IMG/VR virus record: IMGVR_UViG_3300032213_001531
Location: 40,994-104,993 of that record
Length of the DNA stretch: 64,000 bases
Direction: 5' to 3' (one strand)
DNA from: a virus
Part shown: piece by piece, positions 469 through 34,300 of the stretch
Numbering within the stretch: position 1 is the first letter of the stretch
Layout: every line of letters begins with the position of its first letter
Made by a program: the position numbers and the translations under genes
The notes under the pieces: model-generated
Told to the model about the DNA's origin: nothing
The model's database searches: none
The model's input: only the letters and a program-made list of their open reading frames with translations

Positions 469-1692
469 TTAGTTTTTATCTTCAAAATCCTTATATCTGT
501 AGTATCCCTTGTCAAAATCAACTTGAACAAGGAAGTCTCCCATAAAACCATTACGGTTTTTTCTAAAAGCACACTCGATGATATCGCTGTTAGTTGCACG
601 ACCTAAAGCAATAACCCAGTCAGCATCGTAGGCAATCTGTCTTGACCAAGCAGTCTGTCCCAATGTAGGAACTCCACTAAGATCATTAACATCATCTGGT
701 GTTGCAGATGAGATAGCAATAATAGGAACCTCTTCGCCAATAGCCATTAGCTTTAGTTCTCGTGATAGGTTTTTCATTCGTACCGTTTCATTATCTGACT
801 TCTGATTAGGAGCCATTAGTTGAAGGTAGTCAACAATAACAAAGTCTGGTTTGTATTGATCAATCTTTCCACGAAGAACTGAAGGATTTATTTCTCCACC
901 TTGATCATTAGAAATAATATGGAACTCTGGCTTGCCTTGTAAATGTTTGGCATGCCACATCTTTAACATGTCCATTTCAACTTCACCGTTGCTAAGTTTT
1001 CTATGAGACCAAAGACCCTCACCCATAATTGTAAATACACGGTTACGGACTTCTGTTTCAGACATCTCAAGTGATATTACAAGGGGTGTCTTACCCTGTT
1101 TCCAAGCCTGTACAGCAAAGTATAGAGCCATCCATGACTTTCCTATACCTGGGTATGCTAAGAAGACTCCTAGCTGCCCTGGCATAATTCCAGAAGGAAG
1201 GTAGTTATCAAATCCTGGCAAGTTAGTCTTAATCCCAACGTGGCCTGCTGCTTGTTGAGCTTTCAAGTTTTCAAAGTATGCAACTGCTGACTCAAGATCA
1301 GTTACATCAATATCACGAATTGCTGATGTGTTTTTCTTTAACTCAGATGTTTTAGTAATTAGTTGGTCAAGTGCTTCACCACCATTACCTGTTTGAATTT
1401 CTGAGGCTGCTGTGCGAATGATATCTTTTAGGCTATCAGTTAGATACTCTGACTGCAATTCTTCAAGGTGATGCTTAGTAGCACCAATGCCAGAGATAGG
1501 TTGAAAATCTCTAAACTTTTCTACAACTAACTCTACTGGTGGAACAGAACTGTTATGCTCAAAATAATTTCTAATGAAATTCCAAACATCATTATGGGTT
1601 CTAAGCAGGTTATCAACATTTGCCTGTAAGAGAACGTGCACCTGCTTATCGCTTAAAACTGCAGAGATTAGTTTTGCTTCTGTATTATTCAC
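469..1692 (-). CDS. dnaB: replicative DNA helicase (DnaB family)
   Basis: Walker A AYPGIGKS, SLEM, VIVDYLQLM, KNRNG motifs. Confidence 0.95.
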   Translation of the reverse strand: MNNTEAKLISAVLSDKQVHVLLQANVDNLLRTHNDVWNFIRNYFEHNSSVPPVELVVEKFRDFQPISGIGATKHHLEELQSEYLTDSLKDIIRTAASEIQTGNGGEALDQLITKTSELKKNTSAIRDIDVTDLESAVAYFENLKAQQAAGHVGIKTNLPGFDNYLPSGIMPGQLGVFLAYPGIGKSWMALYFAVQAWKQGKTPLVISLEMSETEVRNRVFTIMGEGLWSHRKLSNGEVEMDMLKMWHAKHLQGKPEFHIISNDQGGEINPSVLRGKIDQYKPDFVIVDYLQLMAPNQKSDNETVRMKNLSRELKLMAIGEEVPIIAISSATPDDVNDLSGVPTLGQTAWSRQIAYDADWVIALGRATNSDIIECAFRKNRNGFMGDFLVQVDFDKGYYRYKDFEDKN

Positions 1693-2892: not shown

Positions 2893-3335
2893 TAATTAGT
2901 AATGCCAATGATAATAAGGTTTACTCCAACAATAACATTACCAGTAGAGTCAAATTTTACAATACCATCAACTTTTGAGGTAGAAGCTGGATAGAGAATA
3001 ACAGAAGTATCTTTTCCAGCTACTGTATTTCCTTTATTAACCACCGTAGCAGTTACAATTGGTGGATACTTAAATTCTGCTTGTGAAAATCCATAAGTAA
3101 ATGGAATACCTTCTCCGCCCGTTACTGTTCCAGGCTTAATCTCTACATACCCGCCAATAAAACGTGAATTTTTCCCCATTGCTGTTTGAGTGCCAGACTG
3201 AGAAGTATCTATTGTTACATACTTAGACTGATTTGGACTAACTAAACTTTGAAGATCATTTACAGCACTTGCCATTTCAGAAATATAGGAAACATCCAGA
3301 GGTTGGCCAGCTTGAGGGATTTGTATTTTTGCCAT
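2892..3335 (-). CDS. minor tail/baseplate protein
   Basis: End of tail operon; beta-rich C-terminus (FKYPPIVTAT). Confidence 0.55.
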   Translation of the reverse strand: MAKIQIPQAGQPLDVSYISEMASAVNDLQSLVSPNQSKYVTIDTSQSGTQTAMGKNSRFIGGYVEIKPGTVTGGEGIPFTYGFSQAEFKYPPIVTATVVNKGNTVAGKDTSVILYPASTSKVDGIVKFDSTGNVIVGVNLIIIGITN

Positions 3336-3345
3336 AGTAATTCTA

Positions 3346-3768
3346 TTATACCAGAGACTGGCTTCCTGAATTATAGATTTTTAGCGCATCGTTTACAGTT
3401 CGATTGATTCCCTCTACTTGAATTTGAACCTCAACTGAAACTGTTCCTGTTTTTAAAAATGAATAGGAGTTAACAGATGAAGTTGCTCTCCAGGTAAGTG
3501 GTTGCCCATCAAATCCAACAAAAATATCGTAAGCTGTTGTGTTGGTTGGTGTTGCCCAAACTACGGTTACAGCATTTTCAAGTACCTGCACAGCTCCTGC
3601 TATTTGTGTAATCTCAGTTGCAGGAATAGCATAAGTTGGTGACCAATGAGATGTTCGGTTTTTATCTTCTGAAATTATCCTATACCTTAGAATATACTCA
3701 TTAGAGTTTCCTACTTTTCCTAAATCTTTTTTATATATTGTTGTTTTTTTAATTCCTAAGTCAGCCAT
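3346..3768 (-). CDS. minor tail protein (FN3/Ig-like)
   Basis: YILRYRIISEDKNRTSHWS and VTVVW...YDIFV pattern; tail operon. Confidence 0.55.
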   Translation of the reverse strand: MADLGIKKTTIYKKDLGKVGNSNEYILRYRIISEDKNRTSHWSPTYAIPATEITQIAGAVQVLENAVTVVWATPTNTTAYDIFVGFDGQPLTWRATSSVNSYSFLKTGTVSVEVQIQVEGINRTVNDALKIYNSGSQSLV

Positions 3769-10089: not shown

Positions 10090-10784
10090 TACACTTCTTC
10101 CAATGTACAAGAAACATTCCAGAAGTCATAGTTACTTCCACCACGCTTAACGACAGTATAACTAAAATCTGAAATAAACATTTCTATTAATTCATTATAT
10201 TGTCCAAGGTGTGCGTAAGCTAAATTGTCTTTACCAAAATTAGAATACTTATCATAAGCAAGGTATACCCAAAAAGAACCTTTATGGCTATCATACCAAT
10301 CTACAAGATCTACTCCCCCTGCTCCACCATCAGTGGTGTATTCTTGATTTTGTATTGTAACATTTGGAAGTTGTGAGAATGACGCATCTGTTCCTGGCTC
10401 TCTTAAACCTTCATCAATTAAAGATGTTTTTCCAGATGAGTTAAATGATGGATTTAAACCATGAGATCTAGATGGAAGCATGTTCCAAGATGTACCAATA
10501 GTTAGTTTGTCAGCAATATGATATGAGCGCATACGACCATTAATCATTCTTTCACGCTTTTCAATTCTGTTGTTATTAAAATTAATCTCTCCTCTATTAT
10601 CATCAGATAATATTAAGAATTGATCTAGCAAAGATTGATCTGATATACCAGTAGTATCAGCTTTTACTTCATAGCCGTTGGGAACATAAAGACCATTAGT
10701 AAGGGTTCCTGAGTTATTAGCCCAAAGCATTGCTTGTGGTCTAGCATACTTTCTTCTACCATTGATATATGTTTCTGTTGCCAT
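10089..10784 (-). CDS. distal tail (Dit-like) protein
   Basis: Immediately downstream of tape measure; ends WNVSCTLEEV. Confidence 0.6.
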   Translation of the reverse strand: MATETYINGRRKYARPQAMLWANNSGTLTNGLYVPNGYEVKADTTGISDQSLLDQFLILSDDNRGEINFNNNRIEKRERMINGRMRSYHIADKLTIGTSWNMLPSRSHGLNPSFNSSGKTSLIDEGLREPGTDASFSQLPNVTIQNQEYTTDGGAGGVDLVDWYDSHKGSFWVYLAYDKYSNFGKDNLAYAHLGQYNELIEMFISDFSYTVVKRGGSNYDFWNVSCTLEEV

Positions 10785-13700
10785 TAAAATCTACTCCCTC
10801 GAATTTTTTGTGAATCTATCTGTTTAATTTGAGCCATAACTGATCTAGCAATTTCATCAGGATTCGCATCTGACTTAACGTTTACGCTAATACTATAATT
10901 ATACACTGCGTCGCCTACTGAATCTCCATTATTGATTGCTTTCATCTTGTCCGCACCATGAGTGTTAACAGCATACTTACTCATTACAAATTCTCCTGGA
11001 GTAAGCATTGCTGGTACTGTATCTGTTCCCATAGCATAACCGCCTGAAGCAAAGAACTGAGGAATTAATCCACCTGAAGATTTAGCAGCAAAACCAGTAC
11101 TAAAGTTAAACGGAGTAGGCTGGCCATCTTTATAATTAATTCCGTCTTTGTTACCAGTAAAAGGCTCCCAGCTATCAGTTTTTCTTCTATAGATAAGCGC
11201 TCCAACTCCTGTGTCTGTATAAACATCACCATTCTTATAATCATTTCCCCATACTGTATAGCTAGTCTGATTTGGTGATCCAATTAGTGGTTCAGAAAAT
11301 GTTAACATTGTTGCTGGATCATTTGCATTAGATGTTGTACTTGATGTTGTTGAAGAAGATGAAGATGTTGTTGAAGAAGATGAAGATGTTGTTGAAGAAG
11401 ATGAAGATGTTGTTGAAGAAGATGTTGTTGAAGAAGGGGAGGCTGTTGAAGTATTTCCAGATGTTGAATTTTTAGAGGCTATGGCTTTAGCTAATAAAGC
11501 ATTTGCTTTTGCTAACCTATCAGAGTTCTTGGCTAAGAGTGCTGCATTTTGTTCTATCAAAGCATTTAAATTTTCTGCAATAGAATTTGATATTGACATG
11601 CCTGATTCAATAAGCTTTAAATTATTTTCTGCTTTAGTAATTGCATCTTGAGCAGTTTGCAATTCTGCAAGCCTTCCCTTATTCATATAATCACCAAAAC
11701 GATCTGACATGTCAGCATAAACTTGTTTTGCGTTATTGACAGCTGCAACTCCTTCATCATAACCTACAGGCTTAGTGTTTGCATTATTATTTAAAGCTGC
11801 ATCTGCTGCTGCAAGAGCTGCGTCTAAAGCTGCTGTTGCCTGAGCGTCTATTGCATCTGCTGCATCTTGTGCTGCTTGTGCCATTGCTACTGCTGCTGCA
11901 GCTGCTGCGATGGCAGCGTTAGCTGCATCTTCCGCAATTTTAAGTGCTGCGTTAGCTGCTGCTGTATCTGCGTCTGCTGCTGCTTGTGCTTCTGCAAGAG
12001 CTTTTTCGGCTGCAGCTTTTTCTGCTGCAGTTACTGCCTCTGCTTTAATCTTGAGTGCTGCTGCAACAAGGGCGTCTGCCTCTGCCTTAGATTTTTCTGC
12101 TGCAGCTTTGGCATCAGCAATAATTTTGTCAGCAGCGGCTTTTGCATCCGCAGTAATTTTATCTGATGCAGCTTTAGCATCTGCTTCTGATTTAGCTACA
12201 TTTGCTGTGCTTCCAGAATTAGTAACAATGGTTTGTGCAGTAGTCATTATCTTGGAGTCTTTTGCAGGTGTTGCTGCATAGGCACCAATTTTTGTCATAA
12301 TTGATTCCCATTGTGCATTGATTGCTGTTGATGCTGCTAATAATGCAGCAAAGGCAGTATCTAAATCTTTTTTAGATAGATCATATGCTTTTACCTTAGC
12401 TTCAATTGCAGCCCAAGCATCTTTATTTTTTCCAAGGACAGTAGTTTCTTCAACTAATTTATCAAGTCTTGCTTGAATAGTTTCATTCTCGGTGTTTAAG
12501 GCAGCAATCATTCTTTCTCTATCTACAACACTATCTTTAGTAATTTTAGCAATTTCATTTTCATAAGTCCGAATCTGCTTTAAGTTATTTTCTCTTAGCT
12601 GTTCTAACTCATATATAGTTTTAGTTTTAGATTTAATACTATCTTGAATTGCTATTTTTCTAGGATCTGTTTCTAAAGCGTAAATGTCTTGAGAAATTTG
12701 ATACTGCTTTTCTTTAATTTGATCTTGAGTAAGGCCCTGAGTTGCTACAAGCCTATCTAGTTCATTTTTTCTGGCTAGTTCAAAAGATTTTTGTGCTGCA
12801 TTAGAGTATAAATCTGCGCTTGCTTTTCGCATATCCTGCATTGCTTTTCCTGCTGCAGAAATATCTCCGCTAGTTAAAGCATCTGCTAAGCTAATCTGTT
12901 TTTCTTGTTGTGATAAAATTGCATCATTAATCTCTTTAACTGTTGTTAGGGATTCTGCTTGCTGATCGTAACGTTTATTAATTTCTTCTGCAGCATGATT
13001 AATAAGATCTAAATCATGAGATAAGGCACTAGATTGATCTTGCAATGCTTGAATAGGCTCATTAAACTGAACATCAATTTGATGCTGTAGATCATTAATC
13101 TCTTTCTGATAATCATCAATCTTTTGACTAATATTAAGAGAAACTGCTGCTTGAATATCATTAATCTTATACTGAAGTTGCTCTATCTGTGCTTCATATG
13201 GGCGGAGTTGGCTTTGTAATTCTTTAATCTTTGTCTCATTAGCAGAAAGTTGTGCTACATCTTTAGTGCTTCTAGAATCTACACCAGTCTTAATTAGATC
13301 TTCCTGTACCGCAAACATTTGGTTAACCATATCAAGACCAGAAGAAGCAACTTGAGCATAGTCTCCCTTGTTAAAGTTGATTTGAATATCAATTAGTTTC
13401 TTAGCTTCGATGTCTTTCAAGAACTCAGAAATTGCTCCTGTTGAACCTTCAATAGCTGCTATGTCAATTTTGCCATCTTTAATGTTTTGGGTGAACTGTT
13501 TTAGCATTGCAGGGTTTCCAAGTACTGCGTCAATTTGCTCTACAGAATACCCCATAGACTTCATTGCACCTACTACTTCTGGAGTTTTTGCAAATACATC
13601 AAACTCTGCATTCTTTGTAAGGGTGTCAGTTATAACCTGCATCTTTTCCATTGCACTATTGGCTTCAGCAATATCTTTAATAAACTTCTTCATTTCATCT

Positions 13701-16700
13701 GAACCTGCAGCACCAAGGGTTCCAGCAGCAATAGCTGAAGCAAGAGATTGATCTTCAATTACTTTAAGTGCATCGGTAACAGACATTCCTGCACCTCTTA
13801 AAATCTCAAATGCTTCTCTTTGTTTTTTAATGTTGTCTATACTTTGGGCTGCACCAAATTGAGCCATACCAACAACTACTGAATTAAAGGCTTCGGACAA
13901 CCCTAGTAAGTCTTCAGTTATTCCAATGACGTTTCCTTTATCGTCTAGCTTGAATGGTTTTTGTTTATCCTTTTTACTTGGGTTTACATCTGAGTTTTTA
14001 AAAGCTTCAAACTCTTCTGCTGACATTCCAGATATTGCATCCATGAGTCCTGAAGATACTCCACCCTCTAGCATTATTTGCTGTAGGCCCTTAAACTTTG
14101 CAAACATTCTGCTAAGACCGCCTTCAGCACCTTTACTATTTTCAAAAATAGCCATGATAGATTTTAATGGGGTAAGAGCATTAAAAGCTGAATCTCTAAA
14201 TAGTTTTAGCTTCATTCCTAAATCCTCTAGAAAAGAATATGCTCCCTTTAATGTATCTGCAGCTTCTTGTGCAGCTAGCTTTTTTAGATCAGCAGTCTTT
14301 GGACCATAGATAGAATCCAGTCTTTCTTTTAGTAACTTATCCAAAGTGCTTTTAGCAATACCTGGGTTTGCTTTACTTAACTGATCTATTTGTGCTTGTA
14401 TGAGAGCTGCTGAGTTTGCTAATGGAAGAGGAATATCTTTCCAAAGTCCTTTTTTCTTAAACGCATTAATTAATTCTGCATTCAACTCTTGTTGGATGTT
14501 ATCTGATATCAACAACTGATTTAAAGTAACTGATGCTTCTAGCTGTAGTGTTGGATCATAACTACTTAATAGATCCCAATTTTTTACTGCAGCATCAAGT
14601 GCTTCATTTGGGCTTTTCCCTTTTAACTTTAATTCAGCTTGATACGCAATTAGCGCTGGTTTAGTAAGCTTTCCTCCTGGGAAATGTTTTCTAAGGGCAT
14701 CAATTTCTTTTCCAAGTTTTTTGAGTACGGGAATGTCATCTGGATCTGATTCTATATTTAAATCTATTCTAAACTCTGGAGGGAATTGAATAAAGTCTTC
14801 TAACATTGAGTAGAATTCTCTAGCTTGTTGAGGGCCTTCTTTGCCATTAAAAGTACCAGCAACATTGACTACAGTATTAATGTTTTCTTGATCTGATAAA
14901 TTTTGAAGAATCCAGCCAAGAGAATCCATCTCTTTAGCTCCTTGGCCTCCTAACATTAATTTCCAAGTTGTTTCAACATTTTTTCCAGTTGCTATAAAGT
15001 TCTCAATTAAAGCTTTTGCAGATCCAGCAGAAATGTCACCAGCTACGACTGATGCTTGAACCATAACTCCAATTTTTGTTACATCTTGAGTTGTTTTTGC
15101 TTTTAATCCTTGAATAATCCTTACTTGATTCTGCATTTCAGCAATATATTCTGCTTGCGCTGCAGTAAATTCACCACTATTACTATCGTAGGAATCTCTT
15201 CTTGCTTGAATTTCTGCTACTCTTTTTTCTGACTCTGCTAGTTGTTTCTTTAATTCTTTTCTTTCTTCTGAAGAAATTCCAGCTTCTTTTGGAATCAGTT
15301 TTGAATCTGGATTTAGCAATGCACTAAGTTCTGTTGCTGCAAGCTTTTCTGGACCTACGGCATCTTTATATTTATCATCAAAGGCTGTCTTGTATGCTTC
15401 TGCATATTTAACCTTTGCATCTTTGCCACTAATGTTGTCCAAGAATCCAGTAGCTCGATCTACAACGTCTACCCCTTGATTTCTTAACTCTTGTTGATCT
15501 TGAAGGTTTTGATCATTAAGATCTTTAATCTTCTTTTCAATTTCAAGTCTTTTTTCTGCAGTCTTAACGGCCTCTTTTTCTTTAGTAAGTTTTTCAATTT
15601 GAGCATCAGTTTGCATTTGTAGTAGATCCATAGATTGTTGAACTTGTGCTAGTGACTGAATTGAATTACCTGCTACTGCTCCAGCAACTGCTCCTACAGC
15701 TTTCTTCTCTCTACCTTGTTGATACTTTCTAAGAGCTAGATCTGCAGCAAGTGTTGTTGCTAATATAATTGCTCCAGGAAGTACTCCTGCGCCAGTTGCA
15801 GAAGCACCTGTTCCTAATGCTGCTGCTCCTCTTATAACTCCTGCGCCAAATCTTGCCTTTCCTAAAGTTCCTGCTATTTGTGACTCTTTTGCAAAAGTTG
15901 CTGCAGCAGGTAGCGATCTAGCCCCAGCTATAACCCCTGTTTTATCAAGTTGACTAGCAATACGGGCGCCAAGAAGAGCGCCACCGACTGTGCTTCCTGC
16001 AAGCTCAAACCCCTCACGTTTATTGATTCCAGTCCTTAGTCCAACAGCCCCTGCTCCAGGCACATTCTGCATGAGGTTAGCAAACCATCCGCCCATTTCT
16101 TTTTCAACAACATCACTAAAAATATTCTGCATTTGAGTAGTAAGTTGTTTTTGATTTTTTAATATCTTTAATTGAACCCCAATAGGGTTATCTTTTAGAT
16201 TTTTTCCATCGGGGCCGATGATTTCTCTTAAAATTCCTCTAGCTTCAATCTCTAAAGATTGATCTCCCATATCTCTTGCAAGATTTACAATGATTGATTC
16301 TGCCTGATCTGCAGACAATACTCCTTGGCTTACTGCTGAAGCAAGTTTTGTTCCTAGTTGTTTAGCTGCACCTCTACCGTTTGATTTTGCGTAAGTGTTA
16401 AACTCAGCAATAAATTGTTTTCCAAATTCGCTACCTGAAAAATCTTTACCAAATGTTTGATCAATTGGAGTTATCTCAAGTCTATTTGCTTCTCTCTTCT
16501 TGTCCATAATTTGTGTTGCAGACATTGTTCCAAGGATAGATCCAAAACCTTCCAAAGACTCAATGGTATTTCCAATAGATTGTCCTTGTTTAACTCCATC
16601 AGCAATAGATTTTCTAATTGCCATGCTCTGCATTTTAAATGAAACGCCTAATGCTACTACTGTGGCAATCAATTTCTTTAGCGGTGAATTAAGAAGTGGC

Positions 16701-19700
16701 AATATCATTGGAAGCATAGATGCTCCCATAATTGCTGTCATGTGATTAGAAGCAAATTTTCCTGCTGTTGAATCAGGTGATCCTTGTGCAATTCCTTGAG
16801 CAAGCATAGGAATCATCATGGCTGCCATTCCTACACCCATCATTGTTTGAGATGATTTCATTCTTTGATCTTGTCTTGCATTAATTCTTTGTTCTTTATT
16901 TAATGCATTACCATCTTGATCGTGGGTTGCAACTTTTCCATACCCTGTCCAATAACCACCATGTGGCTTAGGACCGCTAGGTCCACCAGGACCAGCAGGG
17001 CCACCCATAGATGACAGGCGAGCATCAATCTTTCTAACTCTATCCATTGCTTTTGCGCTTGCTGATTGAACCCTAGCATTATTTGCAACTGCCTTAGTTC
17101 CAGTTACTACCGCCGTTCCAAACTTGCTAACTTGAGCTGTAGCTTTTCCAAGTACATCTGCTCCCTTTGAAGGTGGTGGTGTATTTGCTACTGGAGTTGC
17201 TCCCCAACCATCACCCTTATCAACCATGGTGTATCCAGGAAGAGGTCTTGGAACTCCACCCTTACCGCCTCTACCACTACCATGTTCAGGAATTGTTCCA
17301 TTAATCATTCCTGAAACTAATGAAGAATATTTGGCTGCAGCCTTGGCTGGAATGACTGCTTCTCCAGGAGATAGCATTGCTGGTTGAATATCTCCCGCAC
17401 CCTTTGGCCCTGGAACTGAAAAAATTCCTTTTGCTAATGCAAGAGTATCCGCTGGCATATAGTCTGAGTCTTTAAATTTCTGATTCTTGTAATATCCATC
17501 ATGAATTCTTTTCCTTAATAAATGTTCAGTAATTATATCTGTAGTTGTCCAAGTGTCTGCTTTATTTTTTGCACCCCAACCTTTATATTGATGTCTTTTA
17601 CTTTCTAATTTACTAAGTGCTATCAATGCTTCTTTTTCAGTTGTTACGTGAATTGCGCCCATCCTTTTTGAAAGTGCATTCATTCCAGAGTTTATAACTG
17701 TCTGATCTCTCACAACATTGTCTGCTGGCCAAAACTCTAAATCTCTATTTTTACCAGTAGCTTTTATATGGCTTGCTGCGATTCCACCTTCGCCAGATCT
17801 GACTCTCTCTATTGCAGTTTGAAAGTCTGGTGCTTTTAATACAGCAAGTGCATCTGCTTCTGAAATTTTTCCAGTATTAACAAGATTCTTCTTTACAGAA
17901 GCAAGCTCTTCTGCATAATAATTTAATAGCTTTTGTGCTGGTTTATTTTTACTAGGGTCAGCAAGAACTTTTTGCCATCTACTATTTACCTCTGGTGGAG
18001 TGGCTCTAGTTCTTGATCCTGACCAAGGATTTACATTTGCAAACAAACCTTTACCAGAAGCTGTTCCTATGTCTAATGGTTTACCGCTTTCTTTATACTT
18101 TAAAATTCTTGCTTCTAAAGCTTTTACTTTTTGTGCATAAATTGTTTTATCTGGATATGCTGCTTCAAACTCTTTCCATCTTCCTTCAAACTTAGCAGCC
18201 TCTGATGCTTTTACGGTCATAGATTGACCACCTATTTGAATTTGTGACATTCCAGACCCAAGGCTACTAATCTTAAATGAGGTGCCAGGAGGTAATGGGG
18301 TGAGTGGTAATCTTGTTCTAGATTCTAGACTAGCAACTGTTGCTGCTTCTTTTGCCCCTGAAACTTTTACTGCTGAAGCTGCGCCGTACATGCCCAGTCT
18401 TCCAGCCATGTATCCTGGAACTACTCCACCCTTAGCGAAACCATTTCCTTGTGCCCATTTAGAAAAACCTTCCATAAAGTCTTTATCAGATAAGGATGAG
18501 GCGTGTCCCTTTTGTCTTGCTCTTAATGTAATTTCATCTTCTATTTTTTTTATTGCTGCAGGAGTTAATGCTTTCTTTGGATTAGCAATTACTGATGAAT
18601 GAATCCCGTGAAGTTCTCTCCAGTTCGCACCCCTAGAATCCTCTAAGCGTCTAACCATGTCTTGATAAATACCCTGCTCTTCTTTATTTAACTTAAATCC
18701 TGCTATTGTTGCTTTAAGTCTTGGAAGAGTTTCATCGATCTCTCGTATCATTCTTGTATGGTATTCTTCTGCAGTCATTCCCTTTGGAATATTAGATGTT
18801 GCTTCAGCAAAGAATCTTTTTGCATTTGATCCCTTTACGCCAAGTAAATTTATACGAACCTGATCTTCAACGGATGGCATGCCTTTTGAATATGTTCTAA
18901 AACCAGATGCTGTATCAAAGACTCCAGCATTTCCAGCATCAACCATATTTCTACCAGACACATTTGCCATTTGGAGATCTTTGTCTCCTCTTACTCCAGA
19001 AGCTAAAAGTTGTGCAAAGTATTCATCTTCACTAAACTTGCCCGTTGGTTTTGCAAACTCAGGGTTGTAAGGGGCTTCAGATACAATAATTTTTCTTTTC
19101 TTTTGTGGATCCGTTGGATCAATCATTGTACGAATTGTGTGCTCTGGTGCTTTTAGTGGAAAGGCTTTGTTTGTAATAGTAGCCATTCTTTCCTCTGCTA
19201 AAGCAGCAGTCTCATCAACATATGGCTTAACAAATACCTTAGTTCCATCTGGCTTTTGATACAATCCGCCAATTCCTTTAACAGGAAATGAGTGCCCTGT
19301 GGTTGCTTCAAGTTGAACGCCAAAATCTGTTGGATCCATGTTAGCAAATCGACTTGCTTCAGTTCCTTTTCCAATTGACTCCATTGATAGTCTTGCTTTA
19401 CGTTGTATATTAACTGCTTTAATGCTTTTTGGCATACCCAAAAATAGTGGCATTCTTCCAAGTATATGACCTGGCAAAGTTCCGTCAATCATCTGTCCAA
19501 TAAATGGTGCATACTTCTTAGCCATGTCAGCAGGAATAACGGCTTCTCCAGGGGTTAGAAGGGCTGGGGTAGTATCTTTATTACCTGTTCCAGGAACACT
19601 TGTCACACCCTTGGCAAAACGTCTTGGAGGGGTAACTCTGCCCCTGCTTGGCATAAACATTCCAGGGTTTGTACTAGCAAAACTAGACATTGCAACTTTT

Positions 19701-21625
19701 GCTTCTCTGTAAGCATTAGTTAAGGCAACAAGGCTTGCTGACTCAAGGACATATGCGGAAGACAAAGATTTATGGGCTGTTGCAAGACTATTTGATACAG
19801 CAATATTTTCTAGCTCTTCATTGCTGAGGTACTGTGTTCCAAGGGCTGCATCTTTTGATCCATAAGCTAAACCTTGAAAACCTTTACGAATAAGATTAAA
19901 CATCTTCATTAAGTTAGCTAAACCGTTAGCAACAAGACCAACGGTCATAAGTAGAATTGGACCAATACCAGCAACTGCTGCTACAATAATTGCTACTGCT
20001 TTTTTAATTCCTTCAGGAGCATTGTTAAATTTATCAAACAGCTTAACAAAGAAATTAATAACTGGAGTCAATACCTTTGCAAACAATTCACCAATTGGAG
20101 CAATAGATGCTTTAAGTTTTTCAATTGCTGCTTGCATTTTATACATAGGAGATGATTCCTGTGTTTTTAATTCTCTCTCAGATAACAGCGCCAACTCTTC
20201 TGCAGATGCAGATGCCAATTTTAAAACTCTGCTTGCTTGGTTTCCTTCTTTTGTTACGTTATTTAAAAGTGCTGAGATTCTTGAAAACTGATACTTGCCA
20301 AAAACTTTTTCAATTGTTTGTGCTCTTTGTAGGTCTGTTAGTGGTTGTAATGCTTGAGCAAAAGAAACAACAGTATTTTTTAAGTTACCCTGATTGCTTT
20401 CAATAATTCCCTTAAGGTTAATGCCTAGCTTTGAAGTTGCTTCAGTTGCTGCTTTTGATGGATTAATTAAAGATGCAAGACCAGACTTAAGTGCGTTAGC
20501 TCCTTGCTCTGCACTAATACCACCTTCTTTCATTGCTGTAAGGAAGAATGCTAAATCTTTTACATCTCCGCCAAGCTGTTTAATAACTGGAGCAACTCTT
20601 GGAATGGCATTAGATAAATCTTCAAGGCTTAAAACAGTTTGGTTTTCAACAGAGTTAAGAAAGTCCATTGTTTTAGATAGTTCGCCACTACCAATAGCAA
20701 AAGCATTTTGTAATGCAATTGTTGTTTCTAAAGCTTTGTCTTGTGCAACTCCACCAAGGACTGCTAATTTGTTTGCTTGTCTTACTACCGTATCAAGTTG
20801 CTGCCCTGAGTTACCTGCTGCTGCTGCATCTGCAGCCATCTTGATTGTTTCAGAAACTTTAAGTCCATACTTTGTATACTCTTTAGCAATATCTTTCATG
20901 TTTTTAAGGGCTTTGTCAGTATCATCTTGTGTTGTAAAGATGTCTCCATAAACCTTTTTAAATCTAATTGCTTGAGTTTCAATTTCTTTAAATGCTTTTA
21001 TTGCTGATCCTGCGAACATAGCTAAAGGAATTGTAAAACCAACCATAAGCTGGCGACCAGCCCACTGTGTATTCTTACCAAAGTTTAGAAGTTTTGTAGC
21101 ACCATCGTCAAGCAGCTTATTCATTATCTGTTGACGTTGAATAGTCATTGACATTCTTGTTAATGCGTCGTTATAATTAAGTGCTTTTGGTGTAATTCGC
21201 ATTGAGCGGATTGCACCCTGTGCGTCTTTACCTAGTTGGACATACTGGCTTTGAAGAGCCTTAACTCTTTTTTCAGCAAGGTTGCTAATTGTTTGAAATT
21301 CTCTAGCGTAATTCTTTCCAAATGTTTTAGTGGAAGCCATGCCATATCGATAGTATTCACGAAGTGATAGCTTGCCAGCTTCCAGACGTTTTGAAAACTG
21401 ATCTGTAGAAGTTGCCATCTTGCCCATTGAGGCATTAAACATGCCTGTGGCATTAATGTTATGTAAAAGTGATTTTGAAAAATCGGCTTGAGCTAGTGAT
21501 GCAGCTTTTGTGCCGACGATCATGGAACGGTTAAGTGCAGATATCTGCTTGTCTAGCCCACGTAGTGCGGACATAGCTTGTGTTGTATCAATATTAATTA
21601 AAATATTGCTGTTTACATCTGTCAT
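10784..21625 (-). CDS. tail tape measure protein with inserted cargo domains
   Basis: 3613 aa; TP901-type tape-measure region near N-terminus, hydrophobic segments, long coiled coils; follows tail chaperones. Confidence 0.92.
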   Translation of the reverse strand: MTDVNSNILINIDTTQAMSALRGLDKQISALNRSMIVGTKAASLAQADFSKSLLHNINATGMFNASMGKMATSTDQFSKRLEAGKLSLREYYRYGMASTKTFGKNYAREFQTISNLAEKRVKALQSQYVQLGKDAQGAIRSMRITPKALNYNDALTRMSMTIQRQQIMNKLLDDGATKLLNFGKNTQWAGRQLMVGFTIPLAMFAGSAIKAFKEIETQAIRFKKVYGDIFTTQDDTDKALKNMKDIAKEYTKYGLKVSETIKMAADAAAAGNSGQQLDTVVRQANKLAVLGGVAQDKALETTIALQNAFAIGSGELSKTMDFLNSVENQTVLSLEDLSNAIPRVAPVIKQLGGDVKDLAFFLTAMKEGGISAEQGANALKSGLASLINPSKAATEATSKLGINLKGIIESNQGNLKNTVVSFAQALQPLTDLQRAQTIEKVFGKYQFSRISALLNNVTKEGNQASRVLKLASASAEELALLSERELKTQESSPMYKMQAAIEKLKASIAPIGELFAKVLTPVINFFVKLFDKFNNAPEGIKKAVAIIVAAVAGIGPILLMTVGLVANGLANLMKMFNLIRKGFQGLAYGSKDAALGTQYLSNEELENIAVSNSLATAHKSLSSAYVLESASLVALTNAYREAKVAMSSFASTNPGMFMPSRGRVTPPRRFAKGVTSVPGTGNKDTTPALLTPGEAVIPADMAKKYAPFIGQMIDGTLPGHILGRMPLFLGMPKSIKAVNIQRKARLSMESIGKGTEASRFANMDPTDFGVQLEATTGHSFPVKGIGGLYQKPDGTKVFVKPYVDETAALAEERMATITNKAFPLKAPEHTIRTMIDPTDPQKKRKIIVSEAPYNPEFAKPTGKFSEDEYFAQLLASGVRGDKDLQMANVSGRNMVDAGNAGVFDTASGFRTYSKGMPSVEDQVRINLLGVKGSNAKRFFAEATSNIPKGMTAEEYHTRMIREIDETLPRLKATIAGFKLNKEEQGIYQDMVRRLEDSRGANWRELHGIHSSVIANPKKALTPAAIKKIEDEITLRARQKGHASSLSDKDFMEGFSKWAQGNGFAKGGVVPGYMAGRLGMYGAASAVKVSGAKEAATVASLESRTRLPLTPLPPGTSFKISSLGSGMSQIQIGGQSMTVKASEAAKFEGRWKEFEAAYPDKTIYAQKVKALEARILKYKESGKPLDIGTASGKGLFANVNPWSGSRTRATPPEVNSRWQKVLADPSKNKPAQKLLNYYAEELASVKKNLVNTGKISEADALAVLKAPDFQTAIERVRSGEGGIAASHIKATGKNRDLEFWPADNVVRDQTVINSGMNALSKRMGAIHVTTEKEALIALSKLESKRHQYKGWGAKNKADTWTTTDIITEHLLRKRIHDGYYKNQKFKDSDYMPADTLALAKGIFSVPGPKGAGDIQPAMLSPGEAVIPAKAAAKYSSLVSGMINGTIPEHGSGRGGKGGVPRPLPGYTMVDKGDGWGATPVANTPPPSKGADVLGKATAQVSKFGTAVVTGTKAVANNARVQSASAKAMDRVRKIDARLSSMGGPAGPGGPSGPKPHGGYWTGYGKVATHDQDGNALNKEQRINARQDQRMKSSQTMMGVGMAAMMIPMLAQGIAQGSPDSTAGKFASNHMTAIMGASMLPMILPLLNSPLKKLIATVVALGVSFKMQSMAIRKSIADGVKQGQSIGNTIESLEGFGSILGTMSATQIMDKKREANRLEITPIDQTFGKDFSGSEFGKQFIAEFNTYAKSNGRGAAKQLGTKLASAVSQGVLSADQAESIIVNLARDMGDQSLEIEARGILREIIGPDGKNLKDNPIGVQLKILKNQKQLTTQMQNIFSDVVEKEMGGWFANLMQNVPGAGAVGLRTGINKREGFELAGSTVGGALLGARIASQLDKTGVIAGARSLPAAATFAKESQIAGTLGKARFGAGVIRGAAALGTGASATGAGVLPGAIILATTLAADLALRKYQQGREKKAVGAVAGAVAGNSIQSLAQVQQSMDLLQMQTDAQIEKLTKEKEAVKTAEKRLEIEKKIKDLNDQNLQDQQELRNQGVDVVDRATGFLDNISGKDAKVKYAEAYKTAFDDKYKDAVGPEKLAATELSALLNPDSKLIPKEAGISSEERKELKKQLAESEKRVAEIQARRDSYDSNSGEFTAAQAEYIAEMQNQVRIIQGLKAKTTQDVTKIGVMVQASVVAGDISAGSAKALIENFIATGKNVETTWKLMLGGQGAKEMDSLGWILQNLSDQENINTVVNVAGTFNGKEGPQQAREFYSMLEDFIQFPPEFRIDLNIESDPDDIPVLKKLGKEIDALRKHFPGGKLTKPALIAYQAELKLKGKSPNEALDAAVKNWDLLSSYDPTLQLEASVTLNQLLISDNIQQELNAELINAFKKKGLWKDIPLPLANSAALIQAQIDQLSKANPGIAKSTLDKLLKERLDSIYGPKTADLKKLAAQEAADTLKGAYSFLEDLGMKLKLFRDSAFNALTPLKSIMAIFENSKGAEGGLSRMFAKFKGLQQIMLEGGVSSGLMDAISGMSAEEFEAFKNSDVNPSKKDKQKPFKLDDKGNVIGITEDLLGLSEAFNSVVVGMAQFGAAQSIDNIKKQREAFEILRGAGMSVTDALKVIEDQSLASAIAAGTLGAAGSDEMKKFIKDIAEANSAMEKMQVITDTLTKNAEFDVFAKTPEVVGAMKSMGYSVEQIDAVLGNPAMLKQFTQNIKDGKIDIAAIEGSTGAISEFLKDIEAKKLIDIQINFNKGDYAQVASSGLDMVNQMFAVQEDLIKTGVDSRSTKDVAQLSANETKIKELQSQLRPYEAQIEQLQYKINDIQAAVSLNISQKIDDYQKEINDLQHQIDVQFNEPIQALQDQSSALSHDLDLINHAAEEINKRYDQQAESLTTVKEINDAILSQQEKQISLADALTSGDISAAGKAMQDMRKASADLYSNAAQKSFELARKNELDRLVATQGLTQDQIKEKQYQISQDIYALETDPRKIAIQDSIKSKTKTIYELEQLRENNLKQIRTYENEIAKITKDSVVDRERMIAALNTENETIQARLDKLVEETTVLGKNKDAWAAIEAKVKAYDLSKKDLDTAFAALLAASTAINAQWESIMTKIGAYAATPAKDSKIMTTAQTIVTNSGSTANVAKSEADAKAASDKITADAKAAADKIIADAKAAAEKSKAEADALVAAALKIKAEAVTAAEKAAAEKALAEAQAAADADTAAANAALKIAEDAANAAIAAAAAAVAMAQAAQDAADAIDAQATAALDAALAAADAALNNNANTKPVGYDEGVAAVNNAKQVYADMSDRFGDYMNKGRLAELQTAQDAITKAENNLKLIESGMSISNSIAENLNALIEQNAALLAKNSDRLAKANALLAKAIASKNSTSGNTSTASPSSTTSSSTTSSSSSTTSSSSSTTSSSSSTTSSTTSNANDPATMLTFSEPLIGSPNQTSYTVWGNDYKNGDVYTDTGVGALIYRRKTDSWEPFTGNKDGINYKDGQPTPFNFSTGFAAKSSGGLIPQFFASGGYAMGTDTVPAMLTPGEFVMSKYAVNTHGADKMKAINNGDSVGDAVYNYSISVNVKSDANPDEIARSVMAQIKQIDSQKIRGSRF
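11343..11436. repeat. 21-bp tandem repeat (GATGTTGTTGAAGAAGATGAA) x3 plus partial copies, encoding a Ser/Thr linker in the tape measure
   Basis: Seen directly. Confidence 0.9.
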
Positions 21626-21655: not shown

Positions 21656-21982
21656 TTATTCTTGTGAAGCAAGTGCAAGTAATGCTGAATCATTTAGATT
21701 GATACCTGATGCTGCTTCAATGATCTTGTATACTGTTGGCAGATCAACTAAATCTTCCAAATCAGCAACAGAGTAGTCTGCGTCTGCTTTATATTGTTTC
21801 ATTGCAATGTGGACACATTCAATTAGGATGTCCATTGATTTTTCGTTATCTGTTGCTACTGCTGTTAGTCCTTCAAAAGATTTCATAAACGGTCTAAGTA
21901 AAGAAATCTTAAGTGGCTGTGCGTCAATTTTTGTTCCGTCGATAAAGACGATCTCATTCTTTTCAATTGGCTTAGTTGCCAT
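21656..21982 (-). CDS. tail assembly chaperone (gpG-like)
   Basis: Start MATKPIE after GGAGG; between major tail and tape measure; paralogous to N-half of 22034..22720. Confidence 0.75.
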   Translation of the reverse strand: MATKPIEKNEIVFIDGTKIDAQPLKISLLRPFMKSFEGLTAVATDNEKSMDILIECVHIAMKQYKADADYSVADLEDLVDLPTVYKIIEAASGINLNDSALLALASQE

Positions 21983-22033
21983 GTATAACCTCCTGTGGTT
22001 GTAAATCAATTATACCATAGGCAGGCTTATTTT

Positions 22034-22720
22034 TTAGTCTATTTTTTCGTAAGACAATCCCATACCAATACCAAAACCAGCCTTTTGTGCATTTACTCCT
22101 TGCAATGCTAAAACGTCTTTTGAGTTAGCTGCTGTGCCACCGCTGTAAACTCTAGCTTTTAGCTCTTCCCAGGCATTTCCAGTACTCTTATTACTTGCCT
22201 TATCTAGGTCAACACCTTGCATTGCTGCTAAAAATTTCTGTTCATCGTATCTTGATTCTCTTTTACTTTCAAGAGTTGCTATTAGTTCTGGCATTGATAA
22301 AGACTCTTCTAATTGATTGTAGTCTTTCCAGATGCCCAGCAAAAATAACTCAGACTCTAGCTTTGCTAAATCTAATGTTTCCCAAGAAGATCCACTTTCT
22401 ACTGCTTGCTCTTTAACGCTTTGCTCTGAATCTTTATCTACTTTAATACCTGCTGCAATATCTATTAGTTTATATATTGTAGGAAGGTCAAAGTTATCTT
22501 CTAGATCCTCTACCGTCTTTATTTCTGGCATATATTGTTGCATGGCAATTCTGGCACACTCTACTAGATTTTCAATAGTGTCTTGATCCCCTTGAGATTT
22601 TCTAACAATTTCAAAAGCAACCATAAATTGTCTTAAATATTTTATTTTTAATGGAGTGATATAAAGTGGCGTTCCATCAACTAAATAAAGGACTTCACTA
22701 TTGTATATTCTCGTAGCCAT
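22034..22720 (-). CDS. tail assembly chaperone (gpGT-like long form)
   Basis: G-like N-half plus C-terminal extension in one frame; directly after major tail gene. Confidence 0.75.
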   Translation of the reverse strand: MATRIYNSEVLYLVDGTPLYITPLKIKYLRQFMVAFEIVRKSQGDQDTIENLVECARIAMQQYMPEIKTVEDLEDNFDLPTIYKLIDIAAGIKVDKDSEQSVKEQAVESGSSWETLDLAKLESELFLLGIWKDYNQLEESLSMPELIATLESKRESRYDEQKFLAAMQGVDLDKASNKSTGNAWEELKARVYSGGTAANSKDVLALQGVNAQKAGFGIGMGLSYEKID

Positions 22721-27854: not shown

Positions 27855-29255
27855 CTAAATGAATAGATCGGCTGTTTTGAGGAAACTACCGCCCCATAGG
27901 GATTTTTCAACCGTTTCAGATTGATTCTGTACTATCTCGCCGAGATCGCCAGACTTTCGGAAAGCCGTGTCTGCTTCTACAGCATCTACTCGCTTACCAA
28001 ATTCATTAAATACATTTGAGGCTGTTGCAATATCTTTTGCTACTGCTTCAAATGAGCTTTTTACTTCGTCAACATCAACCTTTGAAGACTTAAGAAGTTC
28101 TACTTCTGCTTGTAAAGATTTAACTGTTGATACTAGATCGCTAAAGGCTGATGTAAGAGTGTTCTTGATTTCAGCAAGAGACTCAACAATTACTTCATCT
28201 GACTTAGCTGCCATAGGCTTTTTGGCCTCGGCATCTTCGTCTACTGGAGTTTCAGCAGCAGCCATAGCAGCAGATTCTTCTTCGTCAGTCATTGGCTTTG
28301 CAGCCTTTTCTGTTGAGTCTTTTGAATCTTCTGCAGCAGATTCTTCATCAGACATAGGCTTCTTATCAGCCTTTTCTGTTGCTTCTTCTACTGGTGTTAC
28401 TTCTACTGCATCTGCCTCTGGAGCGACCTCTACTGCTTCAACTGTAGCTTCTGATTTTGATACAATCTCATCTGCTACATTTTTTGTTGTTTTTGCCATA
28501 GGATTTGCCTCCTTGTTAATCTTAGAAGTATTAATGCCTTTAGCACTATCAACTAAGAACTTTATCATATTTGTTTTTTCATTATCCGTTTTTTCAACGA
28601 AACCTATATTAGTCATTTCATTACCATTTACTGGGCTAAGCTCAGACTCATTTTCTGAAACCATTACGAGTCCAGATTCTTTATCCCAAAATACATTCTC
28701 AAGCAATGTCTCATCTGCTTTAATAATATCTACACCATCTACTTTTTCAACAGATACAATGTTTGCAAACTGATTAGCAGGGGAATCAACAAGACTCAAC
28801 TCTACCAAATCATATTCCTTAATAACACGGATTGACTTATCTGATTTTTCATCATAAGCATCATCCCATTTATTCATTTTTCCGCCAATTGAAAAGCCAG
28901 TAAGGGTTCCGTCAAGAACTTTTTCCCAAGTATCTTGTGCACCCTTTGAAACATAAGCGGACACAAAAACACCTTTATAAAACTTCTTTGATGCTGGATC
29001 AAAATATTTATCTTCTTTAAAATCTACCATTTTACCTACTGCTACGGGCTGATGCATTTCTCTAATGTTCCCACGGAACTTTGCAAATGCTTCCATTGAT
29101 GCTTCTGCTGTAACAATATCATCTTGTTTATCAAGGTTATCTAGTGAAGCAAAACCAGAAACAATTCTTCGCTCTTTGTCTACTTTGGTAAGTGGCATTG
29201 AGAGACGAACATTTTCCCCATCGGTATCCCAATGAGCTTTTGATATACTATTCAC
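27855..29255 (-). CDS. prohead protease fused to acidic scaffold
   Basis: REMH, GFSIGG, ELSLVDSPAN HK97-type protease motifs; acidic coiled-coil C-terminus. Confidence 0.9.
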   Translation of the reverse strand: MNSISKAHWDTDGENVRLSMPLTKVDKERRIVSGFASLDNLDKQDDIVTAEASMEAFAKFRGNIREMHQPVAVGKMVDFKEDKYFDPASKKFYKGVFVSAYVSKGAQDTWEKVLDGTLTGFSIGGKMNKWDDAYDEKSDKSIRVIKEYDLVELSLVDSPANQFANIVSVEKVDGVDIIKADETLLENVFWDKESGLVMVSENESELSPVNGNEMTNIGFVEKTDNEKTNMIKFLVDSAKGINTSKINKEANPMAKTTKNVADEIVSKSEATVEAVEVAPEADAVEVTPVEEATEKADKKPMSDEESAAEDSKDSTEKAAKPMTDEEESAAMAAAETPVDEDAEAKKPMAAKSDEVIVESLAEIKNTLTSAFSDLVSTVKSLQAEVELLKSSKVDVDEVKSSFEAVAKDIATASNVFNEFGKRVDAVEADTAFRKSGDLGEIVQNQSETVEKSLWGGSFLKTADLFI

Positions 29256-31339: not shown

Positions 31340-34300
31340 TTAGATAGCGTTTTGAGTGTTACTTGTCCACAAAACATCTTGATAGAATAGGTATTGGTAA
31401 GACCCAAACTTTAAAACCTTATCTGGACCATCTCCTACAATAATTTTATTGGTTCCTGTGTAAATCTTATAAATAATTGATGGATCTACCCCATAATAAC
31501 TGCTAGAGGCAAGAATCAAAACATTGTTCCAAGTAACACTTGGTGAATCCCAGTAATTCCAGTCAAGCTCAGTAGATATGTCTGTCTTAACTTTAAACCA
31601 CGGTCTGTTTACTACCTTTTGCTTTTCTTGTAAATTTGTTGATTGATAATAAGAAATAGTATTAGTTAAAATTGGGCCAGTTATTTTAATTGATCCAACG
31701 ATATTTGAAAAATTGAGAGCATTTGTAAATGAAAGACCTAAGAACCCCCAGTCCTTGGTAGTAATTATAGGCTCTTTAACAACTTTACCATTCCAGTAAA
31801 ATCCAATATCATTTGAAAGCTGACCACTATTTGCATCAATGGCATAAAGTTTTGCTCTTCTGCCTTGTGGATCATTAGCAACCATGTAAATCTTAATTAC
31901 TTTATCCCTTGACTCAATCTCAAATATTTCTGTTGCTGCAAATGGAAAAAAGTCTTGAGTATATCTAATTGCTGCCTGGATTGCAATAACCTTAAACGAG
32001 TTTACTGCATTTTGATTTATTGGAATTGATATGCCACGATTTATAAGTGAATCATGGGTTCCCTTAATCTCAATACCGCTATGCCTTGTTGTGTAAAGAT
32101 ATGGAGAGCTTCCCTTATATATAGTAAATGGGTTTGCACCTTTATAGTCATAATAGATGCCTGTTTTTTTGTATGGATAAATAGACGTTCCAAACCTTGT
32201 GCCAATAGGATTTGGAGATACATCATTGAAGGCTTGAGAACAAATTTGCAAACTCTTAATATTAACTTTATTTTTTAAAGAAGATTTAACAGTAAAATCA
32301 ACGTGTGTAACTACAGCAATATCCAAAATATCCGAAGTTTTTGGAGGATACAAAATTGTGTTATTAACTACTTCATATTTTGTGTTTATCCAATTAATCC
32401 CTGGTTCAATAACTCCTTCTTTGGGAGCCAGCTCAGAATAGGTAAAAAATTCATCGATTGCATTTGCTCCAGAAGATAGGTACTCAAAAGATATATGAGT
32501 CTTTACCATTGATTTAGATGTATCATATTTATAGTTTTTAATTGACTTGTTTTGCAAATCTGAGTAATCGTTATAGCCTGTATACAGCTGATTGTCTAAA
32601 GACTCATAGGTTCTTTGTACTGGAATCGCATATTGTTCTTTAAGCTCTTGATATGTCCAAGTACCAGAAGACTGCTCTTCAACAAACTTTGAGGGTTCTG
32701 GATAGTTGATATTAAATTGCAAGAAATCTAAGTCGTAATAGAAATCGTTCTTTGCATCTTTTACATATTGAGCAAAATAAGAAAGCGGAACATAGTCTTT
32801 CCAAGAACCGTTAATGTCAATATCTAAACTGTATTCACCAAAGTATACAACTGGGGATAGCGTATAGCTTGCTGTGTGGTTAATAAGCATATATGTTGAA
32901 AATCCTGAAGGACTACCGCCATCCAATAAAAATTGCCAATAGGATGCTTGATTTCCAAAGTAAGTTTCTCCAGCATCGTAATCTACAAGGCTTCCATATA
33001 AATTAAAAACATTTTCATAATTTACTGGAACACCAATATCGTTAAAAAAATCTTTGATTTGCTGATAGTTTTTATTATTAGAAAATCCTACATTATAGAT
33101 ATTTCCATTAAAAGTATTCTCTAGTTCTTTTTTGCCACCAACATAAAATCTTAAACTACCACGATTTCCAAAAAATGAGGATACATTTCCACCAAAATTA
33201 CTTACAAAAGAATCTATATGAATTCCAGAAACAAATGTCTCTCCTGTTGAATATCCATATGATTCATATATTGTTTGTAGGACTCCATTATAATTTAGAT
33301 TATAGGAAATAGTACTACCATTTAAAGAAATTTCAAAATAATCATTTGAGTCTGCAGAGTCAATATAAATAAGAGTTTCATTGGTTGCTGGTGACTTGGA
33401 TTTAAATATTCCATAAAAACACTTAATTTCTTCTTGTAAGAAGCTTAAATTATTAAATAAAAGATATCCCTCGGAATAATCCCAAGAGTCTAGACCTCCA
33501 GGATATAAAGAAAAGAATAGATCAGACTCATTTTGACTAGATGCATTATCTGAATAAAAATCTTGCTCAGTTTTATTACTTATAACAATATCAGGAAGAA
33601 AGTATTCAGGAGTTGACAAAATTCCATTATTAGTTGTAAGATTGTCTACAGATCCCTGATTCCAATTAACCATATTAGGATAAGAGTGATTGTTTGTATA
33701 ATCTGCAAAAGGATAGTCAATAAAAACAGATGTTCCGCTATAGGACTGGTTTATTCCTTCTGGAAACTCAACGCCTTGGCCATACACAAATCTTCTTGTT
33801 GCAACAATAGAAGAAACTCTATAAGGATAAACTGCAATACAGTCAACTTGAAAAGGATAAACATCCTCATAAGACCAAAAAGCAAGCCAATCATTGCTTA
33901 GTCCTTCTGAAGAAATTTCTGGAAATTCTAGATCTGTAGTTAAATATGTTAAAGAAATTACCTCTTCTCCATTAACCAACAAGGAAGAACTGTTTTCTGA
34001 AACAGTTATATGGATTAACATAGGTCTGTCCCATTCACCAACAAAGTAAGACCCAATGCTTGATCCTATTTTAAGGATAAGAAAGGATCCATTAACCCAT
34101 AAACCATTATCCCCCCTAAGATTTCCAAATATCTTTTTAGGTTCTGTACAATCTACAGCTACCTTTAACCACATCTCAAAAGTGTAGTTTTTATATTGAC
34201 CAATTTTATTTAAAAAGCCTTTTCCTGGAACTATTAAAGAAGGACTGCCATTGGAGCTTGGAGACATGGCCGTAACATTAGAGGATCCGTAAACAATTGG

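Follow-up and report, generated by a model that had tools for sequence, protein, structure and literature searches.

A conserved repeated module flanks exchangeable cassettes, one of them predicted to be kinase-like, in a giant phage tape measure protein

What is a short peptide doing three times over in the ruler of a phage tail, and what happens to the domains that lie between its copies? The question is raised by a stretch of 64,000 nucleotides (the window, whose coordinates are used throughout) from virus record IMGVR_UViG_3300032213_001531, positions 40,994 to 104,993; the record is 104,993 bp long and judged 97% complete. Its gene P0001 encodes a protein of 3,613 residues. Family matches make it a tape measure protein (TMP) of the TP901 type, from a siphophage of 105 kb. 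Comparison of this protein with its relatives shows that the three motifs are copies of one module of ~55 residues, that the module is a conserved separator under purifying selection, and that cassettes are replaced, reordered, gained and lost at modules in the window phage and in hundreds of relatives. The feature is real and non-random.

The repeated module and the protein that carries it

The assignment to tape measures is based on a match to PF10145 (PhageMin_Tail) at residues 248-443 (E 1.5e-27; 97 bits, the cut-off being 33) and on 11 tape measure families in PHROG that match the first ~800 residues. PF10145 is the sole significant Pfam match; V-SNARE falls below threshold (17.6 bits against a cut-off of 25.9). 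The original prediction of a tape measure with cargo bracketed by a repeated module is borne out by these matches and by the module scores below, and its three module copies and a short FAKGGVVPGY all lie where it had placed them, in one minus-strand open reading frame (ORF). The layout is as follows.

10784..21625, minus strand: TMP gene (P0001), a single ORF of 3,613 residues
19628..21625, minus strand: N-terminal TMP core, residues 1-666, with a hydrophobic segment at residues ~539-572; 38-99% identity across relatives
19448..19627, minus strand: module copy 1, residues 667-726 (FAKGVTSVPGTGNKDTTPALLTPGEAVIPADMAKKYAPFIGQMIDGTLPGH); 81.6 bits with the module profile hidden Markov model (HMM)
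18440..19447, minus strand: cassette K1, residues 727-1062, a predicted atypical protein-kinase-like domain
18398..18439, minus strand: relic module, residues 1063-1076 (FAKGGVVPGYMAGR); both module ends present, core absent
17438..18397, minus strand: cassette K2, residues 1077-1396, a variable insert with no assigned function
17270..17437, minus strand: module copy 2, residues 1397-1452; 73.4 bits with the module HMM
11063..17269, minus strand: Gly/Pro-rich linker, hydrophobic segments and long helical ruler, residues 1453-3521, from translation and a hydropathy scan
10919..11062, minus strand: module copy 3 (terminal type), residues 3522-3569; 52.8 bits with the module HMM
10787..10918, minus strand: C-terminal tail, residues 3570-3613, a putative hub-bound helix

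The first copy runs from FAKG to PALLTPGE at residues 670-694 (19544-19618; PALLTPGE at residue 687, 19544-19567), the second from LAKG to PAMLSPGE at residues 1397-1422 (17360-17437; PAMLSPGE at residue 1415, 17360-17383) and the third from FASG to PAMLTPGE at residues 3525-3545 (10991-11053; PAMLTPGE at residue 3538, 10991-11014). A loose pattern for the core is observed three times, against 0.015 expected per shuffled protein, and the HMM that gives the scores listed above was built from relatives. A profile search of the whole record returned no module copy beyond these three, all within the TMP.

The module consists of a weakly conserved edge (aromatic-A-x-G(G)), a core (G..D..PA.L.PGE.V) and a brief helix-like stretch whose end lies near (I/L)PG(F/Y). 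The core, whose invariant part is D..P....GE, is at least 90% conserved in 887 non-redundant instances, and the flanks are not. The F(A/S)xGG motif, originally proposed as the junction itself, does sit on the module but is no more than its N-terminal edge, where conservation is lower: 54% of internal copies have it, and 78% of terminal ones. The unit is the whole ~55 residues. Internal copies have the form ...SVPGPKGAGDvvPAMLSPGEAVIPA..., terminal copies the form FASGG...GTDTVPAMLTPGEFV..., and a third module type found in relatives reads GPGTGTSDSIPAMLSNGEYVIKA. At the DNA level the three copies in the window differ at many synonymous sites, which indicates that the peptide is what is conserved and that the copies are not the product of a recent duplication.

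In an AlphaFold2 (AF2) model that includes copy 1, the predicted local distance difference test score (pLDDT) is 30-50 over the module, suggesting that it would not be folded as a monomer, and the modules are of low confidence in the models of both cassettes; this is as expected of linear or partner-dependent motifs. Searches of the three modules against Pfam and NCBIfam, at E values up to 10, gave nothing relevant, and the copies of phage Lolly9 and of L004 likewise had no match. No description of the module, or of polyprotein or kinase TMPs of this kind, was found in the literature.

Beyond copy 2 the protein becomes a ruler with hydrophobic segments at residues ~1652-1670 and 1943-1965 and with Ala-rich and Ser/Thr-rich tracts. 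Its end (residues ~3150-3520, window ~11063-12200) contains long Ala-rich repeats of the AKAAADKI type, then a Ser/Thr tract of ~45 residues (SSTTSSSTTSSSSS...) and, directly before module 3, a small Gly/Tyr/Asp-rich segment. Module copy 3 ends 44 residues from the C-end, a distance (about 45-120 residues) like that of the module in lambda gpH and JBD30 gp46, and inside the span of about 25-200 residues used as the criterion for a pre-C-terminal copy. The remaining tail is probably a hub-bound helix, by analogy with the TMPs of lambda, T1, JBD30 and Douge, whose last 32-42 residues are what the structures resolve within the hub (PMC12617516, PMC11945409, PMC11445458, PMC13033339).

Cassette exchange, kinase-like cargo and wider distribution

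Of 482 significant relatives retrieved from the database, 120 were analysed. They carry between zero and five modules each, and their cassettes fall into the following arrangements, in which m denotes a module.

m-K2-m-K1-m...m: 31 relatives
m-K2-K1-m...m: 11 relatives
m-K1-K2-m...m (the clade of the window): 7 relatives, including the window
m-K1-m...: 30 relatives
other cassette before K1: 11 relatives
K1 without a recognisable module upstream: 28 relatives

The cassettes occur in both orders: K1 precedes K2 in the clade of the window, and K2 precedes K1 in at least 42 relatives. Replacement is also evident, at the protein level, from P0005, whose N-terminal core is 98% identical to that of the window and whose module 2 is 96% identical, whereas its K2 is only ~24% identical; identity drops at the relic and resumes at the first residues of module 2. 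Alignment thus shows K2 to have been replaced in P0005. In P0006, module 2 forms an island of 70% identity between flanks of 24% and 38%. These two patterns argue for exchange at the modules. The internal copies accordingly stand as separators between the TMP core, K1, K2 and the ruler, conserved islands amid exchanged cargo. The idea of interchangeable cargo at repeated junctions is therefore supported at the level of sequence by the two cassette orders, the variable module number and the replacement in P0005; an alignment of related tape measures, which the original prediction had set as its own test, finds the regions between motifs to be non-colinear.

K1 is the better characterised of the two cassettes. 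Its AF2 model has pLDDT 70-95 over the core, and VIA-align places it nearest the CotH kinase 5jda (Z 11.4; 215 residues aligned, root-mean-square deviation 3.8), PI4KII-alpha (9.9) and MavQ (9.5), followed by CtkA, HipA and Fam20. Thirteen chains have Z of at least 8, and all 50 matches listed are kinases or kinase-like. The top matches in Foldseek are also kinases, if weak (E ~1e-3), and protein-language features point to the LepB_N, PI3/PI4-kinase and HipA_2 clusters. Residues K800, E811, D881, D883, N888 and D896 are invariant in 10 K1 sequences of 42-88% identity and lie in the motifs VFVK800, ALAE811, RGD881KD883LQMAN888 and VD896AG, which correspond, as assigned by motif order and not by superposition, to the beta-3 Lys, the helix-C Glu, the catalytic D....N and the metal-binding DxG. 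With a bilobal fold in the model and this conserved catalytic set, K1 is predicted to belong to the protein-kinase-like superfamily, in the atypical branch that includes CotH, PI3/4-kinase, HipA, CtkA and MavQ.

Giant TMPs are almost the only place where K1 occurs, and 92 cassettes among the 120 relatives match it. Shorter forms in the database are mostly gene fragments, 17 of 19 lying on contigs of less than 4 kb; the other two are P0269 (482 residues, 7.5-kb contig) and P0281 (297 residues, 25.5-kb contig, a match to the module only). The best structural matches of K1 in BFVD include several large phage proteins of about 600-1,300 residues, whose names vary (ADP-ribosyltransferase, portal protein, PI3K/PI4K-domain protein, uncharacterized). 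Cultured phages had no tblastn match to the internal module or to the K1-K2 block.

Between the kinase-fold domain (residues 727-1062) and the second insert (1077-1396) lies FAKGGVVPGY (residues 1063-1072, window 18410-18439), as had been predicted. The longer segment FAKGGVVPGYMAGR looks like a fourth module copy of which the two ends are left and the core is lost. In P0014, P0056 and P0060 a full module occupies this place after K1, ending ...IPGFNGGRLG where the window reads VPGYMAGRLG, and the relic is kept in P0002-P0007. K2 itself had no match in Pfam or the Atlas, and its AF2 model is poor (mean pLDDT 46.6). It belongs, as a divergent member, to a cassette family that occurs in ~50 relatives, upstream of K1 in at least 42, and its invariant residues are S1285-H1286, N and H. 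An apparent homology of K1 and K2 was rejected as an artefact of one K1 sequence (P0014) among the seeds, which disappeared once that sequence was removed.

The module extends far beyond these relatives. A profile built on 22 module copies matched 26,499 protein-cluster representatives at E of 1e-3 or less and 5,012 at 1e-10. Many siphophage TMPs carry a module some 45-140 residues before the C-end, and some proteins of 5,000-7,900 residues carry seven to ten copies by HMM count, with segments between copies that are mutually unrelated and without K1. Two metagenomic TMP-like proteins, P0121 and P0123 (7,794 and 7,872 residues), have about ten copies at a spacing of ~200-1,250 residues; in the similar P0125 and P0133, the N-terminal PhageMin_Tail region is all that Pfam detects.

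Among cultured phages, one copy type alone matched 915 records, and in the 40 matches listed the annotated features were all TMP or hypothetical protein. In Lolly9 gp17 two copies (48.7 and 43.0 bits) bracket a segment holding an NlpC/P60 hydrolase, and the TMP of Douge, gp16, has two copies at the same places (E 1.8e-15). In P318 two copies precede a CHAP domain, in Trina one copy precedes an M23 peptidase, and JBD30 gp46 has one copy at residues 1019-1057 of 1,158 (E 8.4e-6). In lambda gpH (853 residues) the module aligns at residues 732-779 (hhalign E 3.6e-5, probability 71%), with an HMM match too. Identity of the module with Pfam Tape_meas_lam_C was rejected, as PF09718 covers gpH residues 627-701. 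A copy also occurs in S-SCSM1 gp213 (L014:2228-5080), a 950-residue virion 'lysozyme' of a T4-like Synechococcus cyanomyophage whose gene adjoins baseplate hub genes; the single module, at residues 606-642, is directly followed by a glucosaminidase domain. The module is thus not confined to siphophage TMPs.

What the modules may do

The reading towards which this analysis leans, with some reserve, is that the modules are both junctions for the exchange of cargo and sites of chain handling as the tail matures. The TMP would exit the tail before the DNA, so that the cassettes would be the first to reach the host envelope or cytoplasm, where K1, if it is the kinase that its model predicts, would probably phosphorylate a lipid or protein of the host as infection begins. 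The weakest step is that a module may mark a place of chain handling. The likeliest handling would be a proteolytic cut adjoining the module, by analogy with the cut near the module of lambda gpH, and cutting at the modules would make the TMP a true polyprotein. Cleavage itself, taken as a part of this account, is viewed more doubtfully, although release of cargo by processing is plausible from analogy.

The analogy comes from two phages. Lambda gpH is cut after tail assembly in a glycine-rich zone just before the module, both pieces remaining in the particle, and the site and catalyst of this cut are described as still unknown (PMC12617516). In T5 a cut of pb2 frees an enzymatic C-terminal piece (bioRxiv 10.1101/2022.09.20.507954). 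The last fragment predicted for the window TMP, module 3 plus tail, would be ~95 residues and would match gpHC and pb2C in size. In lambda gpH (L001:143-2704) an (F/Y)ATGG stands on either side of the module core, at residues 733-737 and 778-782; a cut at the first would give a C-terminal piece of 12.0 kDa, close to the size reported for gpHC (~14 kDa). A T5 pb2C of 92 residues (PMC12617516) would begin at AEGGMMYPG...GTEVVTP, which is faintly module-like and is offered as a lead only.

Several observations count against the combined role of junction and handling site. No tail protease was found near the TMP gene, only the prohead protease at 27855-29255. The lambda match is only moderate, and two TMPs that carry enzymes do so with no module detected, T5 pb2 (by HMM) and P23-45 gp96. 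The ruler of the window protein (residues 1453-3521) is itself mosaic in its conservation against relatives, with breakpoints where no modules exist, so modules are favoured joints and not the only ones. Likewise K1 lacks an upstream module in the 28 relatives listed above, and K2 and K1 abut without a module in 11, which indicates that K1 is not strictly dependent on flanking modules. The module is also not resolved in the tail structures of Douge, JBD30 and lambda (PMC13033339, PMC11445458, PMC12617516).

A structural role in an uncut chain would fit the same facts nearly as well. The module would then be an element of registration or docking, which re-registers the three (or six) TMP chains after each bulky insert or has as its binding partner the lumen of the tube, the distal tail protein or the chaperones of the tail, and the cassettes would stay tethered in one polypeptide. 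Its low confidence in AF2 monomers is what a motif folding only with partners would give, the terminal copy always lies directly above the hub-bound C-terminal helix, extreme conservation over 26,499 clusters suits a conserved partner surface, and in the largest proteins copies also separate long non-globular segments. However, the tubes, hubs and chaperones of module-bearing phages are very diverse and hard to fit to one conserved partner, the cryo-electron microscopy maps cited above do not show the module, and lambda gpH is in fact cut near its module (PMC12617516). This role is a possible one, though on balance unlikely. A bolder form of the processing idea is held just as tentatively: the module would be a self-cleaving or protease-recognition element of tens of thousands of TMPs and the determinant of the cut from gpH to gpH*, and the giant TMPs, some with about ten copies, would be polyproteins that load separate enzymes, here a putative kinase, into the tail tube to be injected ahead of the DNA.

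That the internal copies are functionless relics, left behind when TMP segments, each ending in a module, were fused end to end or duplicated and so enlarged the gene, is very improbable. Residues 1-726 do resemble a complete short TMP plus module (phrog_4704, profile positions 15-562 of 625), one copy in the window has already decayed (FAKGGVVPGYMAGR) and some relatives have degenerate copies. But conservation is higher in the internal copies than in the cassettes beside them, in relatives less than 50% identical elsewhere; the peptide has been kept through the synonymous differences between copies; and functionless copies would not last at up to about ten per protein. Fainter still is the likelihood of a strict system of the polymorphic toxin kind, with a fixed delivery part, interchangeable toxic tips, immunity genes and silent spare cassettes. 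Replacement of a cassette between close relatives speaks for it, and a kinase fold of the HipA/CtkA/CotH kind could be toxic; yet the variable cassettes are internal (residues 727-1396) and the C-end is conserved module and tail, the genes after the TMP encode tail proteins and not immunity proteins, the profile search of the 105-kb record found no spare module-flanked cassette, and K1, with its many matches among the relatives, is conserved rather than polymorphic. The original likening to polymorphic toxin cassettes is on these grounds not upheld.

Enzyme-bearing TMPs are already known, with cell-wall hydrolases (PMC1796659) and one RNA polymerase (bioRxiv 10.1101/2022.12.01.518664). What is new is an unannotated conserved module in 26,499 protein clusters, with a weak match in lambda and clear matches in JBD30, Douge and Lolly9; evidence that this module is the joint of a cassette system inside the ruler of the tail, in which enzymes would be exchanged, reordered and multiplied; and a conserved cargo of predicted kinase fold, occurring almost only in these TMPs, which would be a new route by which to modify the host before arrival of the DNA. 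The link to lambda makes the old question of where and how gpH is cut a testable one (PMC12617516). The multiplicity of the module and the kinase-like cargo are worth experiments.

Genome setting and known systems

The TMP gene lies in a structural block of portal, prohead protease, major capsid protein, Ig-bearing major tail protein, two chaperone-like paralogues, TMP, a 231-residue protein and a 1,533-residue minor tail protein; the chaperone genes and the major tail protein gene are upstream of the TMP gene and the last two genes downstream. The capsid protein shares 44% identity with its counterparts in Streptomyces siphophages of ~130 kb. Both genes directly upstream of the TMP gene (21656-22009 and 22034-22720, minus strand) match phrog_10504 (E 1.7e-19 and 4.5e-21), the longer having an additional C-terminal part (phrog_10474), and look like a chaperone pair made from two paralogous genes and not through a frameshift. 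The block is flanked by a DnaB-like helicase gene (PF03796, E 3.9e-28; 469-1692, minus strand) and by a gene for the ribonucleotide reductase large subunit (phrog_367, E 6e-142; 35085-37115, minus strand). An ORF of 1,237 residues between the portal and ribonucleotide reductase genes (31340-35053, minus strand) had no PHROG or Pfam match.

Among characterised tape measures, lambda gpH resembles the window TMP in the conserved element near its C-end, to which the module aligns, but has one copy and no enzymatic insert, whereas the window TMP has three copies, a relic and two inserts. T5 pb2, which is cut to pb2* and an enzymatic pb2C, has no detectable module. The mycobacteriophage TMPs with hydrolase motifs, of which TM4 gp17 with its peptidoglycan hydrolase motif mt3 is an example (PMC1796659), share with the window protein the embedding of enzymatic domains in the TMP for use at infection; the passages of that report that were searched mention no flanking module. 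In Lolly9, and in Douge by sequence match, two copies of the same module flank a hydrolase segment. Unlike the TM4 type, the window TMP has a predicted kinase fold and another insert after the N-terminal core, and not a hydrolase near the C-end. Thermus phage P23-45 gp96 is a TMP of 5,002 residues that has a virion RNA polymerase as its N-terminal part (bioRxiv 10.1101/2022.12.01.518664); it too is a giant TMP with an enzyme that acts in the cytoplasm and is delivered before the genome, but it is without the module, and its different enzyme lies at the very N-terminus.

Polymorphic toxin systems have in common with the window TMP conserved junctions beside variable cassettes, and replacement between close relatives, but their C-terminal toxin tip, immunity gene and spare cassettes have no counterpart in this TMP or record. 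Polyvalent proteins join several unrelated enzymatic domains, kinases included, in one polypeptide delivered with the invading DNA, and proteolytic release and cassette-like recombination have been proposed for them (PMC5512222); tape measure proteins are not mentioned in that paper. Their scaffolds are MuF, portal or other head-packaged proteins, whereas here the scaffold is a TMP, in which Pfam searches found no MuF, zincin-like peptidase or ART domain and no peptidase domain. Such proteins are recognised by at least two effector-type domains; in the window TMP, K1 has the predicted kinase fold, K2 is without a family match, and delivery in the virion would follow from the role of a TMP. The Sle1-type effectors of actinobacterial (Streptomyces) contractile injection systems likewise combine a TMP-derived scaffold with an exchangeable domain and are loaded in the tube (PMC13277306). 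They are, however, the cargo of a bacterial nanomachine and vary in their C-terminal domain, whereas the variable parts of the window protein are internal.

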